Of a stretch of DNA of 64,000 bases, positions 2,999-58,890 are shown piece by piece. The DNA comes from Candidatus Moraniibacteriota bacterium (GTDB taxonomy: Bacteria; Patescibacteriota; Minisyncoccia; Moranbacterales; UBA1568). A model generated the notes under the pieces. It saw only the letters and a list, made by a program, of their open reading frames with translations. It ran no database searches and was not told the origin of the DNA. Every line of letters begins with the position of its first letter. The first letter of the stretch is position 1. The stretch covers positions 355,173 through 419,172 of the forward strand of contig CAVURJ010000001.1 in NCBI GenBank assembly GCA_963743885.1, read 5' to 3'. The position numbers and the translations under genes are program-made.

Positions 2999-3661
2999 AT
3001 GCCATTAAAGGACACCTACATCCTGCTCGGCTCAGCCGGTTCCGGCAAGAGCACCCAGGCAGAGCTTTTGAAGAGCTCGCTCCATCTTTCTCATGTCGAT
3101 ATCGGGGCAGAATTGCGCGCGGTCGCGTCGCATGATACGCCGTTCGGCCGACAGGTGAATGAGATCATGAATGGCCGTCACGAGCTTCTGCCCGATGAAA
3201 TCATCCATGACGTGCTCGAGAATGCGATCCGTTCTGTGCCGGAGACGGTTGGTATTCTCATCGATGGCGCACCACGCTGCGAGAGCCAGATCGCGCAAGT
3301 GCTTGGCGTTCTCGAAGAGACGGGGAGAGAGCTTAATACGGTCATTTATATAGACGTGCCGGAGACGGTGTCGGTTGATCGTATTTCCAAGCGTTTCGCC
3401 TGTCAGGGCTGCCACCGTACGTATATCCTCGGCAAGAACCTGATTGATGCCGACGTTCCGTGCCGGTATTGCGGTGGGAAGATTTCTCAGCGCGAGGATG
3501 ATACCGAGGAGGGGGTCCGCAAGCGCCACCAGGTCTTCCACGAGGAGACGCTTCCGGTCGTCGAGTATTTCGAAAAGACGGGCAAACTGCTCCGTGTCGA
3601 TGGCAACCAAGAAACCTACAAAGTATTTAAGTTTATTCTTGAACATGTCCGCCCCGAATAA
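2999..3661 (+). CDS. adk: adenylate kinase (zinc-binding lid type)
   Basis: GSGKSTQ P-loop, CQGC...CRYCGG lid cysteines; follows secY. Confidence 0.93.
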   Translation: MPLKDTYILLGSAGSGKSTQAELLKSSLHLSHVDIGAELRAVASHDTPFGRQVNEIMNGRHELLPDEIIHDVLENAIRSVPETVGILIDGAPRCESQIAQVLGVLEETGRELNTVIYIDVPETVSVDRISKRFACQGCHRTYILGKNLIDADVPCRYCGGKISQREDDTEEGVRKRHQVFHEETLPVVEYFEKTGKLLRVDGNQETYKVFKFILEHVRPE

Positions 3662-4453: not shown

Positions 4454-4560
4454 TATCCCGTATTTGCGTATATCGTATATCGGAATATCCTAAACAAGGT
4501 CTTCTTCACCGGCATACGATATACGAAATTCGATATTCGTCTTTTGAGGAGCACTATACT

Positions 4561-4992
4561 TTGGTTAAAGGAAATATGTCGCAAGAGGTTGGAAAAAACT
4601 ATTTAGGAATCGATTGGGGTGCTTCCGATGTGGGGGTAGCGCTCGCACATAGGGAGACGCGCGTGGCTATGGCCTATGCGACGCTGGCAAATGATGGGGA
4701 GCTCTTGCAGCACCTTGCGGATATCATCGCCCGTGAGGATGTCGGCACAGTCGTTATTGGTATCCCGTCGTATATCAACCGCAAGGACGTCGAATATGAA
4801 GGGGAGAAGCTCGGAAAGTTGATTGCTGACATGCTTCCGGATATCCGAGTGGAATACCAGAATGAGATGTTCACGACCAAGATGGCCCAGGTGAATCTGA
4901 TTGAGCGTGGTATGAGGCAGGTCTCAAAACATGACGACGAAGAAGCTGCCCGCATTATTCTCGAAGAATGGCTAGAAAGAAGCGCTTGTTGA
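4561..4992 (+). CDS. ruvX: Holliday-junction resolvase-like nuclease YqgF/RuvX
   Basis: LGIDWGASDVGVALA N-terminal motif of the YqgF/RuvX family; 143 aa; true start may be at MSQEV (4576). Confidence 0.75.
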   Translation: MVKGNMSQEVGKNYLGIDWGASDVGVALAHRETRVAMAYATLANDGELLQHLADIIAREDVGTVVIGIPSYINRKDVEYEGEKLGKLIADMLPDIRVEYQNEMFTTKMAQVNLIERGMRQVSKHDDEEAARIILEEWLERSAC

Positions 4993-5078: not shown

Positions 5079-5858
5079 ATGGAACAGCCCTATCTGTCAG
5101 TCATCATCCCGGCCTACAAGGAAGGTGAGCGTATCGGGCGCAATCTACTCGAGATAGACAAGTATCTCAAGGGGAAGAATTATCCGTATGAGATTATCGT
5201 CGTGGATGATGGGTCTCCGGATAATACCGCCGAAGTGGCGCGCAACTACGCGCTCCAGGTACCGAATCTCCGGGTCATCGACAACGATGAGAATCATGGC
5301 AAGGGCTATGTCGTCCGCCAGGGGCTTTTGGACGCCAAAGGAAAGTATCGTCTTTTCCTCGATGCTGACGGTTCCACGTCAATCACGCATCTGGATTCCT
5401 TCCTGCCGCAGTTGGAGAGTGGCTATGATGTCGTCATCGGCTCGCGCAAGATTGAGGGGTCCTTTGTCCAGGTGCACCAGCCGCGACATCGGGAGATCAT
5501 GGGCGAGGGCGGCAATTGGCTTATTCGTATCGTGCTCGGGCTGTGGAGCTATCCGGACACGCAGTGCGGTTTCAAGATGATGAATGCCGAATCAGCCGAG
5601 CAGGTGGCGAGCCGCATGGTCATTGACCGCTTCGGGTTTGATTTCGAGCAGATCATCCTTTCCATCAAGCTCGGCTTCAGGGTCAAGCAGATGCCGGTCC
5701 GCTGGATGAATGAGGAGGGGTCGACCGTATCGCTTACCGGTCCGAACGGTTTCATCCAGGTACTGATAGACCTTTTCAAGACGAAGTGGCGCCTTTTGAT
5801 CGGCGCGTACCATATTGGAGCGTATACCAAGGCCAAGACTGAAGCAGTGAAGGCCTGA
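5079..5858 (+). CDS. family-2 glycosyltransferase (dolichyl/polyprenyl-phosphate sugar synthase-like)
   Basis: LSVIIPAYKE...IVVDDGSPDNT...DADG GT-A fold signature (DxD). Confidence 0.85.
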   Translation: MEQPYLSVIIPAYKEGERIGRNLLEIDKYLKGKNYPYEIIVVDDGSPDNTAEVARNYALQVPNLRVIDNDENHGKGYVVRQGLLDAKGKYRLFLDADGSTSITHLDSFLPQLESGYDVVIGSRKIEGSFVQVHQPRHREIMGEGGNWLIRIVLGLWSYPDTQCGFKMMNAESAEQVASRMVIDRFGFDFEQIILSIKLGFRVKQMPVRWMNEEGSTVSLTGPNGFIQVLIDLFKTKWRLLIGAYHIGAYTKAKTEAVKA

Positions 5859-7714: not shown

Positions 7715-7858
7715 GCACCAAATCCAAAATCACAATTTCCAAATAAATCCCAATGTTCAAAATAAAAAAATAACGCCGCATCATTTTGAGTTTCGGGATT
7801 TGAATTTGTAATTTGTTTGGAGCTTGGGATTTCAGTTTTTGAATTTTTATAGAAACAT
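7715..7858. repeat. AT-rich imperfect palindromic intergenic element, copy E1 (homologous to 23040..23170)
   Basis: shared words tccaaaatcacaa..ccaaataaat / tttggagcttgggattt..gtttttgaattt with the second copy; the two arms are inverted relative to each other. Confidence 0.6.
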
Positions 7859-12473: not shown

Positions 12474-12563
12474 CAAATAAAATTTTTGTAATTTTGTAAT
12501 TTAAAATTTTAAAAGAATGTCCTAATATCTTAATTTTTTGAGTATTTGGAAATTCAAAAATTA

Positions 12564-12656
12564 TTACCAAGTGTAGTGAGTGAAACGAGAACTTGCTCTC
12601 GTTTCCGAGCGCAGCGCAGGTAAAATCGGGTCAATACCCCGCAGCTTGCTGCGGGG
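12564..12656 (+). repeat. conserved intergenic element R1 (two hairpins plus a GTAAAAT box); copies at 31544 and 47337
   Basis: about 90 nt alignable to 31544..31622 with compensatory changes in hairpin gaaacgaga..tctcgtttc versus gaaacgaaa..tttcgtttc. Confidence 0.6.
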
Positions 12657-12801
12657 AAGGCAAGCGAAGCTTGTCTGCAATGCGGGTCTTGCCCCGCGGT
12701 GCAATACTTGTTATTTTAAAATTTAGAATTTGAAATTAAAAATTTAAAAGCTCCTTTCCTGGGGGTATTTTTTTATTGTCTGAAAAGGTGTAGAATGACG
12801 G

Positions 12802-23039: not shown

Positions 23040-23170
23040 TTTGCTAACAAATTCCAAAGCTCAAAATCACAAATCCCAAATAAATTTCAAATGACAAAAT
23101 TCGAATGTTCGAAATGTCTTGGATTTTGATATTGAGTTTTTGAATTTATTTGGAGCTTGCGATTTTGAAT
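23040..23170. repeat. AT-rich imperfect palindromic intergenic element, copy E2
   Basis: left arm ccaaagctcaaaatcacaaatcccaaataaattt and right arm aatttatttggagcttgcgattttgaatttt are near reverse-complements; homologous to 7715..7858. Confidence 0.6.
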
Positions 23171-23171
23171 T

Positions 23172-24305
23172 TTGAATTTTATGCTCATCGGTATTGATGC
23201 TTCGCGGGCGTTTCTCAAGCGGCGGACAGGCATCGAGGAATACGCGTATCAGACGATCAAACATTTGCGGACGGCTATCCCGGTGACGGATAGTGTTGTT
23301 TTATATGTTCGAAAAAAATTGGAAATTGGTCCGCCGGCTGGCGGATGGAAATTGGAAATTCGCACGCCAGAGATAGACTTTGAATTACCGAAAAACTGGC
23401 ACGTGCGCGCCTTATGGGCTCCTCGTTTTTGGACACAAGTAGGGCTTTCACTTGAGATGCTTCTCCGGCGCCCGGATGTTCTTTTTGTGCCAGCCCATAC
23501 GGTTCCAATCATCCACCCGAAAAAGACTATCGTGACGGTCCATGGCCTGGAATACGAATTCTGTCCCGAAGCGTATCCGTTTCTTGCACGTCTCTATATG
23601 CGCTTTTTCATCCGGCACTCATGTCGTGTGGCGAGTACGGTAATCTGTGTATCGGAGAATACCAAGAGGGATGTGATGCGGCTTTATGGTACGCCGGAAG
23701 AAAAAATACGGGTGGTGTATGAAGGTTTTGAAAGAATCAAGAATCAAGAATCAAGAATCAAGAACGGAATTCAAAAACCGTATTTGTTATTCATCGGCAG
23801 GCTTGAGGAGAGAAAAAATCTCAAGAGAATCATAGAGGCTTTTGAAATTTTGAAAAAGTGGCACGGCATCCCGCATGATTTGATGCTTGTCGGGAAACCC
23901 GGATATGGGTATGGGGGCATAAAATCCTTGATTCTCAATTCTCAATTCTCAATTCATCTCAAAGAGCTGGGATATGTAAGCGAGGAAGAGAAGTGGAGTC
24001 TCTTGGCAAATGCTGATGTATTCCTTTTCCCGACGCTCTATGAGGGATTCGGTATCCCGGTACTCGAAGCACAAGCGGCTGGTGCGCCGGTCGTCGCGTC
24101 GAATACGTCTTCTTTGCCCGAGGTGGGCGGTGAGGGGGCGGTCTACGCTGATCCTTTGAGTGCGGAAAGCATCGCGGAAGCTATCCAGAAGCTCCTTTCG
24201 GACGAAGCCTTTCGAGATGATATAATAAGGAAAGGTTTGGAAAACGTGAAGCGTTTCAGTTGGCATGGATGTGCAGGTGAGATTGCGAGCTTATTGAGGA
24301 AGTAA
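23172..24305 (+). CDS. family-4 (GT-B) glycosyltransferase; contains two heptanucleotide tandem-repeat tracts
   Basis: C-terminal EGFGIPVLEA...G.PVVAS GT4 motif; (gaatcaa)x4 at 23734..23761 and (attctca)x3-4 at 23931..23958 lie inside the CDS. Confidence 0.85.
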   Translation: MNFMLIGIDASRAFLKRRTGIEEYAYQTIKHLRTAIPVTDSVVLYVRKKLEIGPPAGGWKLEIRTPEIDFELPKNWHVRALWAPRFWTQVGLSLEMLLRRPDVLFVPAHTVPIIHPKKTIVTVHGLEYEFCPEAYPFLARLYMRFFIRHSCRVASTVICVSENTKRDVMRLYGTPEEKIRVVYEGFERIKNQESRIKNGIQKPYLLFIGRLEERKNLKRIIEAFEILKKWHGIPHDLMLVGKPGYGYGGIKSLILNSQFSIHLKELGYVSEEEKWSLLANADVFLFPTLYEGFGIPVLEAQAAGAPVVASNTSSLPEVGGEGAVYADPLSAESIAEAIQKLLSDEAFRDDIIRKGLENVKRFSWHGCAGEIASLLRK

Positions 24306-24404
24306 CTGGTAATCAGTAACTAGGGAGAAGAGATTGGCGGGCTTTCCTGGTTACCAGTTACGAGTTACTAATTACGTTGTATAGATTTTTATTTTGAAAA
24401 TCAG

Positions 24405-25544
24405 ATGTTAGATACAATGAAGTCAAAAAAAATCGCATTAGTTCATGATTTTCTTGTTTCGTACGGCGGGGCGGAGCGGGTGTTTCAGACGATCGCCGAG
24501 ATGTATCCGGAAGCGCCGATCTACACGTTGGTCGCGGACCGCGAATTGGTCGAGCGGCATTTCCCTGGCCGTGATGTCCGGGTTTCATGGTTGTCTGGGC
24601 TACCTTCGTTCCTCCGCAGGCGGTATCGCTGGTTTCTGCCGTTCTTTCCGGCAGCGGTCGAGGCGTTCGATTTGCGCGATTTCGATCTCGTCATCTCATC
24701 ATCCGGTGCTTGGGGGAAGGGTATCGTCACTCGGCTTAATACGAAGCATATCGCGTACCTGCATTCGCCTATGCGCTATGCTTGGGACTACCACGAAGAA
24801 TACTTGAAGGAGATTGGCCGTCGGAAGCCGGGCATCTGTGTCAGACTACTGCTTTCCTATCTTCGTGTCTGGGATCGCCAGGCAGCGGACCGACCAGACT
24901 TCCTTATTGCCAATTCACGGTATACTGCTGACCGTGTCAGGAAATACTATCGCCGTGAAAGCGTGGTTATTTATCCACCGGCTTTGGGATTGGCGGAGAC
25001 GATTTCAAACGGGGCCCTTCGACAAGCTCAGGGCGACCAAAAAATAAGAGAACATTTTTTGGTCGTTTCGCGGCTGACCAGATCAAAGAAAGTCGATATT
25101 GCTATCGAGGCGTTCAATAAGCTCGGATTCCCGCTTGTCATCGTCGGCGATGGCCCGGAGCGTGCACGGCTGGCACGGATGGCTGGCACGAATATTCGTT
25201 TTGCTGGTTTTGTCTCGGATGATGAGCTTGCAAAGCTGTATCTTGGCGCACGGGCGCTCATCTTCCCGTCTGAGGAGGATTTTGGCATGACGGCCGCAGA
25301 AGCACTCTCTTTCGGGACGCCGGTCATTGCGTTCGAATACGGCGGCATCCGGGAGGTTGTTGAGCAGGGCCGGTCAGGAGAGTTGTTCGCGGCCCAGACG
25401 CCGGAGATCCTCGCCGAGGGTGTGCGGCGCTTCCTTGCGAATGAGGGGAAGTATGATGAAACACTTATGAAGGAATCGGTGGATAGATTTAGCAAAGAGC
25501 GGTTTCGGGAAGAACTCCGTGCGTTTGTAGAAAAAGTGATTTAA
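24405..25544 (+). CDS. family-4 (GT-B) glycosyltransferase
   Basis: EDFGMTAAEALSFGTPVIA GT4 signature; N-terminal ALVHDFLVSYGGAERV typical of GT1/GT4 N-domains. Confidence 0.85.
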   Translation: MLDTMKSKKIALVHDFLVSYGGAERVFQTIAEMYPEAPIYTLVADRELVERHFPGRDVRVSWLSGLPSFLRRRYRWFLPFFPAAVEAFDLRDFDLVISSSGAWGKGIVTRLNTKHIAYLHSPMRYAWDYHEEYLKEIGRRKPGICVRLLLSYLRVWDRQAADRPDFLIANSRYTADRVRKYYRRESVVIYPPALGLAETISNGALRQAQGDQKIREHFLVVSRLTRSKKVDIAIEAFNKLGFPLVIVGDGPERARLARMAGTNIRFAGFVSDDELAKLYLGARALIFPSEEDFGMTAAEALSFGTPVIAFEYGGIREVVEQGRSGELFAAQTPEILAEGVRRFLANEGKYDETLMKESVDRFSKERFREELRAFVEKVI

Positions 25545-25607
25545 GATTGATGATTGATGATTTAGGAATGAATTCATAAATCCTAATTCATAAATCCTAA
25601 ATCGTCT

Positions 25608-27517: not shown

Positions 27518-27890
27518 CTCCCGCCCAGAAACTCCTTTCTCGAGCAAAAGAAAACTCGAAGGGTTTGTTTCTAACGGAGCTTTTCCCTCATTCTACACGG
27601 CCCCAGGAAAACCTCCGAGAAACAAACCCTTCTTAGACAATTCTTTTGCCTCAAAAGGACATCTGGGCGGGAGACCTTCCTCATACCACGCTTGGTCTCT
27701 TTCGTTTGAGTTTCGCATCTCCTCCTCGTCCATTTTTTCTTCCTCTGGTTTCCGGCGGCAACATTTCTGATGAGTGAGCCGGTAACGGTCGAGCATGGCG
27801 TTCGGGACTGCTTCAGTCCTCAGAACGAACAACTCCCCGTTCGGCAGAGCAAGTCAGAAATGTTCGACGGAAATCATGGAATGAAAAAAT
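27518..27890 (+). repeat. structured repeat element, C family, copy 2 (156-nt core plus about 155-nt 3' module shared with copy 3)
   Basis: core 27518..27673 aligns to copy 1; 3' module 27735..27890 is nearly identical to 47672..47830. Confidence 0.65.
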
Positions 27891-27946
27891 GGATAGGAGG
27901 CGATGCATGAATGGTTTCCGGATGAGAAATTGATGCGGTCCTTACT

Positions 27947-35749: not shown

Positions 35750-36061
35750 ATGATCGATCAGCAAGCGCTTACGCAGGAGCTTATCGCCGCCTTCCATTTA
35801 GAAGGTATCCCGAAAGAGAAGCAGGAGGCGCTCATCGCCAAGATGGGCGAGGCTATCCTGAAGCGTATCTTTCTTGAGACGATGGAGAAAATCGGCGACG
35901 AGGGCGTGAAGGAATATGAAACTCTTCTTGACCGGCAGGCAGGAGAGCAGGAAATTAGCGCGTTTTTCGAGGCGAAGATTCCGGGGTATGATATATTCGT
36001 GGAGGATACGGTGAAGAAGTTCAAGGAGGATATGCTTCAGGGTATGGCAGCAGGTAACTAA
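35750..36061 (+). CDS. hypothetical small protein
   Basis: 103-aa ORF in the operon. Confidence 0.5.
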   Translation: MIDQQALTQELIAAFHLEGIPKEKQEALIAKMGEAILKRIFLETMEKIGDEGVKEYETLLDRQAGEQEISAFFEAKIPGYDIFVEDTVKKFKEDMLQGMAAGN

Positions 36062-36158
36062 CAACTAACAACTGATAACTAACGACACGCATAGACAACG
36101 GCAGGGCTCGTTTCATGATTTCTTCCGTTGTAAGTTGTGGGTTGTAGGTTTATATAGT

Positions 36159-42581: not shown

Positions 42582-42679
42582 CTTAGTGGAATTCCTAATA
42601 TCACACTTCTAATCTTTAGGGATTAAGACATTGGGATCTTCGTTAGGAATTAGAAATTAGATATTAGAAATTTGAAAGT

Positions 42680-58784: not shown

Positions 58785-58890
58785 CCGTAACTCGTAACCA
58801 GTAACTAGTAATTAGGGAAGACGGGCTTTTTCGGTCCTCTCCCAGTTACCAATTACCAGTCACTAGTTACTTTTTCATAAAGACTCAATT

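Follow-up and report, generated by a model that had tools for sequence, protein, structure and literature searches.

In the 64,000-nt stretch of a Candidatus Moraniibacteriota genome that was analyzed here (contig CAVURJ010000001.1, positions 355,173 to 419,172; hereafter the window), a gene for a glycosyltransferase of family 4 (GT4a) contains perfect heptanucleotide tandem repeats, termed tracts A and B, that the initial annotation presented as a candidate phase-variation switch. Our analysis suggests that these tracts are probably in-frame, length-constrained members of a period-7 repeat system that is common to Moranbacteria and, more thinly, to other members of the candidate phyla radiation (CPR), and that is kept by unit-wise misalignment and conversion. 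The arrays that build up in Moranbacteria are short (~4–5 copies) and consist of many different 7-nt units, with hardly any at periods other than 7. A few core genes (GT4 and prmC) also have such arrays, at permissive positions that almost all species share.

Tandem Repeats Finder (TRF) resolved tract A as (AAGAATC)x4.7 and tract B as (ATTCTCA)x3.6, both with a period of 7 and 100% matches, and both inside the open reading frame (ORF) 23172..24305. The gaatcaa x4 initially reported at 23734–23761 is the same array as tract A (23732–23764). The attctca tract is present as well, although its end had been placed at 23958, 3 nt too far; the repeat stops at 23955, where 'attcatc' interrupts the heptamer register. 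The assignment of both tracts to a GT4 gene is upheld, with the ORF holding them and Pfam in agreement, and the identical database protein P0001 starts at ATG 23181, the TTG at 23172 that had been taken as the start being 9 nt upstream. The tracts are not, however, the two independent ones described: the gene has a third array site (site C), and tracts A and B are complementary to each other, 79–81% over 26–29 nt (B taken with 23924–23930; inverted repeats I1/I2). Protein alignment and an AlphaFold2 (AF2) model place site A in a disordered interdomain linker of variable length, site B in an ordered helix plus turn, and site C in a beta-hairpin loop whose residues 51–56 have low predicted local distance difference test (pLDDT) scores. 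The orthologues lack the 15-nt insert of the window's site C.

Across 58 orthologous loci (609 kb), 97 period-7 arrays were counted, vs. at most 8 for each of the other periods between 5 and 12; in the six outgroup loci, no period-7 array was present. Distant CPR-type GT4 loci had 18 period-7 arrays vs. 1–4 at other periods; these loci serve as a control only, the scan of metagenome contigs having returned mostly GT4s that are 29–43% identical, and 5 close ones. At least one array was present in 33 of the 52 orthologous GT4 genes. In the GT4 genes, arrays recur at three places (gene nt ~135–170, ~500–640 and ~690–890), with differing units and copy numbers. Array density was 1.09/kb in GT4a, 0.21/kb in intergenic DNA and 0.02–0.10/kb in the neighboring genes, and GT4a is a genuine array hotspot. 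Perfect arrays in the GT4 orthologues (n = 52) were most often 30–33 nt long, and none was longer than 36 nt (about 5 copies). Only units that are stop-free in all three frames were found in coding arrays, whose translation yields linker or helix segments with a periodicity of 7 residues.

The enrichment of period 7 over other periods, in the window and in the related loci, is the hallmark of lineage-specific over-representation of heptameric simple sequence repeats (SSRs). The other hallmark of such systems, a small and mainly intergenic set of consensus heptamers, was not observed: there were 72 canonical units, A/T-rich, among 125 arrays, and coding hotspots in GT4a and prmC. A single repeat family or a restricted unit vocabulary was rejected, the 72 units being only moderately under the ~102 expected at random. 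Since the units are diverse, the conserved property is the period and not a sequence. In the searchable literature, we found no description of heptamer repeats in Moranbacteria or CPR.

The length of site B was fixed in 59 of 60 orthologues, the sole exception having 7 additional aa. No indels were detected in ~30 orthologue pairs with >92% aa identity (many of them from the same few clades), and at 86–92% identity, 3 groups of pairs had site A lengths that were exactly 7 aa, or 3 units, apart. The comparison of orthologues proposed in the initial annotation did therefore reveal differences in tract length, at site A and at 86–92% identity, but none above 92% identity and none at site B beyond the single exception. 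Variation in tract length between close strains, as expected of a contingency locus, was not seen.

Conservation of the arrays was also analyzed at the nucleotide level. Between the window and loci L059 and L060, nucleotide identity was 67–69% gene-wide and 40–44% at third positions; tract A, with equal copy number, was identical in 32 of 33 nt, and tract B in 23–25 of 25 nt. In an independent clade, L010 and L019 (third-position identity of 43%) share an identical 31-nt (AATTTCG) array and a complementary (TCAAAAT) partner arm, and array and arm form a local hairpin in the region coding for the GT4 linker (L010:6541–6639 and L019:4825–4932). In L061, the closest orthologue, the units were swapped at both sites, with (CAAGATA)x4 at A and (ATATCAA)x3 at B; the length of site B was kept and the site A linker was 3 aa longer. 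Identical tracts in all relatives, which had been named among the observations that would speak against a switch, were found in part: L059 and L060 have the same copy number despite saturated synonymous divergence, whereas the units of L061 are different.

The arrays of prmC, a housekeeping gene, form a similar pair. Its sites 1 and 2 are 89% complementary over 27 nt, with an RNA fold of z = −3.3 in the window, and the 87 nt enclosed by the two arms encode the GTGSG motif that binds S-adenosylmethionine. Heptamer-derived peptides and DNA arrays were found at the same two sites in prmC orthologues across Moranbacteria. A conserved stem between the sites is unsupported: in 9 orthologues, cognate arms gave −13.9 vs. 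−11.9 kcal/mol for non-cognate arms (p = 0.15). In the prmC of L148, the same unit is present at both sites in direct, not inverted, orientation. The paired sites of a gene tend to have units of one family, whichever the orientation, which suggests copying between arrays.

GT4a scored above the Pfam cut-offs for Glycos_transf_1 (118.7 bits vs. 26.4; E = 2.5e-34) and Glyco_transf_4 (52.1 bits vs. 28.5; E = 1.1e-13). None of the NCBIfam equivalogs reached its cut-off with GT4a, so that the substrate is not assigned by family. The AF2 model (pLDDT 91.6) has two beta/alpha/beta Rossmann-like domains with the linker (residues ~181–200) between them. Residues E288 and E296 are invariant in 49 GT4 orthologues, defining an E-x7-E motif. 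By its Pfam domains, its two modeled domains and this motif, GT4a is predicted to be a retaining glycosyltransferase of the GT4/GT-B type. The order murA-mreB-GT4a-GT4b-holB-ftsQ-like-PMT is conserved, and L060 and L061 share the synteny. The nearest proteins and loci come from metagenome-assembled genomes (MAGs) of Candidatus Moranbacteria/Moraniibacteriota (CPR/Patescibacteria) from groundwater and similar habitats, and the closest GT4a orthologue beyond the source genome is 76% identical. The coordinates of the genes, tracts and hairpins are collected in Table 1.

Table 1. Positions in the window of GT4a, prmC, their repeat sites and the intergenic arrays of inverted heptamers.
Feature	Position	Strand	Description	Basis
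GT4a, predicted GT4 (GT-B) glycosyltransferase gene	23181..24305	+	core gene in the cluster murA-mreB-GT4a-GT4b-holB-ftsQ-like	
Site C	23316..23362	+	(AAATTGG)x2, nested mini-hairpin CCGCCGGCTGGCGG at 23331–23344 (PPAGG), then (AAATTGG)(AAATTCG); beta-hairpin loop of the N-terminal domain	
Tract A	23732..23764	+	translated RIKNQESRIKN; disordered interdomain linker (linker pLDDT 62–73)	TRF, AF2 model
Tract B	23931..23955	+	translated LILNSQFS; ordered helix + turn (model residues 244–259, helix H244–253)	TRF, AF2 model
Intergenic hairpin (CAAAATN)n / (NATTTTG)n	23045..23180	+	degenerate; inverted repeat of 52 nt, 73% complementary	RNA fold z = −4.3
Hairpin 3′ of GT4a, (GTAACTN)n / (NAGTTAC)n	24301..24375	+	inverted repeats I3–I6	RNA fold z = −4.0
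Intergenic inverted arrays between GT4b and holB	25537..25603	.		TRF; fold z = −3.9
Intergenic inverted arrays CGTATAT / ATATACG	4464..4540	.	inverted repeat I18	TRF; fold z = −3.1
Intergenic inverted arrays AACAGNN / NNCTGTT	53892..53985	.	5-bp helices with 2-nt mismatches	TRF; fold z = −6.0
Intergenic inverted arrays, GTAACTN family	58786..58870	.	sister copy of 24301..24375	fold z = −3.5
prmC, release-factor glutamine methyltransferase gene	47896..48798	−	downstream of prfA	NCBIfam equivalog TIGR03534, 215 bits (cut-off 199); Pfam PrmC_N
prmC site 2	48343..48371	−	perfect (AAGATTC)x4.1 on the coding strand, translated FKIQDSRF	TRF, sequence
prmC site 1	48453..48483	−	(GAATCTN)x4.4 on the coding strand, translated ESRISNLESR	inverted repeat I1

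Throughout the window, 8 period-7 arrays with a score of at least 12 were observed vs. 0.0 in 20 local shuffles, and the other periods from 4 to 15 gave 0–3. The strong arrays are paired as inverted repeats or lie next to an inverted partner. About ten intergenic spacers (4464–4540, 7720–7850, 12481–12749, 23045–23180, 24301–24375, 25537–25603, 36056–36150, 42590–42677, 53892–53985 and 58786–58870) contain period-7 arrays, nearly always as inverted pairs of degenerate heptamers. When intergenic arrays were tested for folding, 6 of 9 had z ≤ −3.1, and their stems consist of 5-bp helices with 2-nt mismatches every 7 nt. Upstream of GT4a, an (ATTTTGA)x2.7 array (TRF, 23162–23180) closes the hairpin of the spacer and abuts the GT4a start codon. 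Judged by their predicted folds, these intergenic hairpins, together with the local hairpins at site A of L010, L019 and L028, appear to be real structures.

Heptamer hairpins also occupy spacers of a five-tRNA cluster at 52964–54185 (Thr-TGT, Tyr, Thr-GGT, Trp and Glu-CTC), as at 53892–53985. An apparently structured, GC-rich intergenic segment of ~150 nt (12560–12710) lies between the A/T-rich inverted heptamer arrays 12481–12517 and 12711–12749. Two copies of a ~170-nt intergenic repeat, ~85–90% identical, were found at 27729–27893 and 47660–47840, with terminal inverted arms TTTTTTCTTCCTCTGGTTTCCGGCG ... CGACGGAAATCATGGAATGAAAAAA; the repeat is a candidate small non-coding RNA or miniature inverted-repeat transposable element (MITE). 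Membership of a known RNA family was rejected for the repeat-flanked intergenic regions, including the segment 12560–12710, and for the ~170-nt repeat, none of which had a credible match in Rfam.

Three copies of a GC-rich mini-hairpin, TCCGCC-RGYT-GGCGGA, lie in the window (23331–23344, 51534–51547 and 53628–53641) vs. 0.78 expected at ≤2 mismatches. The first copy is nested in frame inside site C of GT4a, where it encodes the peptide PPAGG, and PPAGG is also present at site A of the orthologues P0004, P0020 and P0058. As an element dispersed over loci, the mini-hairpin was discarded: the exact 14-mer was found in 0 of 149 loci, and only 3–4 related copies exist in the window. At site C of L060 (~5130–5260), a composite GC-rich palindrome of ~80 nt is in frame and translated as VIPAQAGIQ...IPGQARDD; inserts that resemble it, also in frame, are present in P0004 and P0023 and in the prmC orthologues P0130, P0143 and P0144.

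Adaptive phase variation, whereby tract A, B or C would gain or lose one unit by slipped-strand mispairing and so reversibly toggle the glycosyltransferase and diversify the cell surface, is suggested by perfect repeats inside an ORF whose unit is not a multiple of 3, a feature that the pair A/B shares with contingency loci. The arithmetic in the initial annotation, by which a change of one 7-nt unit shifts the frame, is correct. Heptanucleotide phase variation is established or proposed for the hmw1A/hmw2A promoters and other tracts of H. influenzae, AACAACC and AATTTTG among them (PMC2651432, PMC8262952), and for neuO of E. coli K1 (PMC13001214), where, as here, a 7-nt unit lies in an ORF or promoter and one unit shifts the frame. 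GT4a is, moreover, the strongest array hotspot at the locus, and the internal homogeneity of the arrays implies ongoing unit-wise misalignment. Four loci had a changed frame. In L044, GT4 is off by one unit, the frameshift lying inside a (GAATTAC)x3.6 array at site C (L044:6143–6170), and one added unit restores the full-length ORF; L048 (~3514–3523) and L052 (~4504–4602) have assembly N-gaps exactly at site B; in L051, the indel is outside any array and unrelated. The remaining orthologues that could be read through are all in frame, three more being broken by contig ends. A flank-anchored variable-gap scan of metagenome contigs recovered 0 other alleles of the source species, and the exact-protein cluster has 1 member. 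The tracts have 3.6–4.7 copies, and the 52 perfect arrays never exceed about 5, vs. about 8–38 copies for the H. influenzae heptanucleotide tracts that are proposed or shown to phase-vary (PMC2651432). Those loci and neuO vary among near-identical strains and are accessory surface or virulence genes of host-adapted pathogens. In contrast, the GT4 tracts are conserved in length across deep divergence, with equal copy number where synonymous sites are saturated, and there are three sites per gene, in a core, syntenic gene of an environmental CPR bacterium known from a MAG, not of a host-associated one, the setting to which the initial annotation assigned the classical mechanism. Tract pairs are also found in prmC, which is unlikely to be a contingency gene, and in most of the intergenic spacers. 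The likeness to contingency loci is confined to unit arithmetic. Of the slippage mechanism put forward initially, the unit-wise part holds for the family, with the 3-unit differences at site A and the single unit of L044: such slippage is real over evolutionary time, and rare frameshift alleles exist. A regulated ON/OFF switch at these tracts is unlikely, and we consider adaptive phase variation of the cell surface quite improbable.

A different reading is that the arrays, alone or as inverted pairs, are functional elements selected at the RNA or DNA level, their 5+2 stems or 7-nt-periodic sites being bound by a lineage-specific protein. Between genes they could be terminators or processing signals, and within genes mRNA structures for translational pausing at domain boundaries or for stability control. 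Conservation far above that of synonymous sites in two independent clades argues for such a role, as do the pairing of tracts A and B in the minimum-free-energy fold, where its 5-bp/2-nt geometry is that of the intergenic hairpins, the complementarity and fold of the prmC arms, and the full local hairpins inside site A of L010, L019 and L028. Both coding hotspots are at or near domain boundaries, and the complementarity of cognate A/B units slightly exceeds that of non-cognate units (4.2 vs. 3.7 of 7), a value reached by a fraction of only 0.00055 of 20,000 re-pairings. The perfect complement of AAGAATC (GATTCTT) holds an in-frame TGA, which could explain a 5/7 match, and stop avoidance may cap the complementarity of coding arms at about 5–6 of 7. 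A conserved A:B stem around 164 nt in mRNA or DNA was nevertheless rejected. The complementarity of A and B is not conserved; it is absent from L061, the segment-level signal among 29 orthologues comes only from the clade of the window, L059 and L060, and the GT4 A:B fold is no better than that of shuffles (z = −1.0). Neither are the cognate duplexes of prmC significantly better than the non-cognate ones, and L148 has the direct orientation. The direct similarity of cognate units is raised too, the units are highly diverse, and no Rfam family matches. Altogether, we consider a functional nucleic-acid element rather unlikely. In its broadest form, which is speculative and which we doubt, Moranbacteria, and perhaps CPR more widely, would actively maintain 7-nt arrays as a signal for a factor specific to this period, e.g., a protein or a nuclease recognizing 5+2 stems or single strands. 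If this were true, the signal would serve between genes as a terminator or processing hairpin, and in core genes it would be embedded, as an mRNA or DNA signal, at fixed sites on domain boundaries; it would account for the class-wide persistence at the same sites, the ~30-nt length, the conservation beyond synonymous saturation and the wholesale swaps of sequence, and it might also account for the puzzle of the cyanobacterial heptamer repeats. It is very improbable that the arrays are footprints of mobile elements, either as the terminal arms of MITE-like hairpins or as 7-bp target-site duplications that accumulated through cycles of insertion and excision, with the GC-rich mini-hairpins as mobile cores. 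This reading draws on the GC-rich hairpins found in frame inside arrays (CCGCCGGCTGGCGG at 23331–23344, PPAGG in P0004, P0020 and P0058, and the palindrome of L060), on the related mini-hairpins at 51534 and 53628, and on the two intergenic copies of the GTAACTN hairpin. Small dispersed repeats are nested in the heptamer arrays of Nostocaceae. Palindromic elements (RPEs) within Rickettsia ORFs provide a precedent (PMC10969869), and RPEs and other MITEs in ORFs resemble the arrays in that unrelated housekeeping proteins tolerate, at permissive positions on their surface, in-frame repeat DNA able to form hairpins (PMC10969869, PMC1779305). The likeness to RPEs is best for the nested GC-rich palindromes of some orthologues, and only these nested hairpins resemble RPE- or MITE-like in-frame insertions. 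RPEs are ~150 bp long, have a family consensus and are inserted as one unit, but the arrays are 25–35 nt long with variable units, occur 2–3 per gene and flank native coding sequence. The diverse units have no conserved consensus, there is no sign that they were inserted as one unit, and the sequence between the arrays in GT4 and prmC is the host's own conserved coding sequence and not an insert. Site B, of fixed length and in an ordered helix, replaces sequence rather than inserting it. No transposase was identified nearby, and the exact 14-mer of the mini-hairpin is missing from all the loci searched.

Heptanucleotide repeats of cyanobacteria go by the name STRR. The closest known phenomenon is the lineage-specific over-representation of heptameric SSRs, documented for certain bacteria together with inverted pairs and with the hypothesis of an origin by polymerase slippage (PMC4692102); examples are the heptanucleotide repeats of Calothrix and Nostoc and the GGGAATC repeats of Xanthomonas (PMC4692102 and its references 33 and 39). 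As in these systems, the enrichment is specific to period 7 and to the lineage, the arrays are short and mostly intergenic, some inverted pairs can form stem-loops, and unit sequence and length vary between related species at conserved positions; a slippage origin has been proposed there. In contrast with the few G-rich consensus heptamers of PMC4692102 (e.g., GGGAATC and GGGGA(T/C)T), the units here are A/T-rich and numerous and have no G-quadruplex potential. Unlike in Calothrix, Nostoc and Xanthomonas, arrays also lie in frame at fixed sites of core genes, with fixed length and with conservation beyond synonymous saturation, and the organism, a member of CPR, has a small genome.

We favor the reading of the tracts as in-frame members of a period-7 repeat system. 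In that system, unit-wise misalignment, by replication slippage or template switching, followed by conversion would create the arrays and keep them homogeneous, which would explain why arrays are perfect within a lineage and yet have other units in other lineages. The total length would be held by selection on the encoded protein, so that the linker would retain only changes of 3 units (21 nt, 7 aa) and the helix slot practically none. In the source genome, the tracts would then be a structural component, under constraint, of an enzyme that is needed constitutively, and frameshifted variants would be occasional deleterious by-products, not a regulated switch. Several points weigh against this reading. 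The process of misalignment and conversion is one that we infer. Neutral slippage plus conversion alone does not explain the conservation of the retained arrays above synonymous sites (window, L059 and L060; L010 and L019), and array conservation beyond synonymous saturation points towards a further constraint, on the nucleic acid itself. The 5- to 50-fold hotspot status of GT4 over its neighbors is not explained by slippage and conversion either, and the one-unit frameshift of L044 and the N-gaps of L048 and L052 are compatible with some length heterogeneity within populations.

The consequences are mostly deflationary, in that the GT4a tracts should not serve as evidence for phase variation of the CPR cell surface. 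From a practical standpoint, the arrays coincide with scaffold gaps in two MAGs (L048 and L052), and may cause spurious frameshift calls. The broader pattern is that of a CPR lineage in which short period-7 arrays occupy fixed positions in core genes and most intergenic hairpins, with turnover of units, fixed length and strong nucleotide conservation. With hundreds of genomes, it offers a comparative system for asking (i) why period 7 is favored in some bacteria, a question left open for the cyanobacterial and Xanthomonas heptamers (PMC4692102); and (ii) how coding sequence tolerates or uses microsatellite-like DNA.

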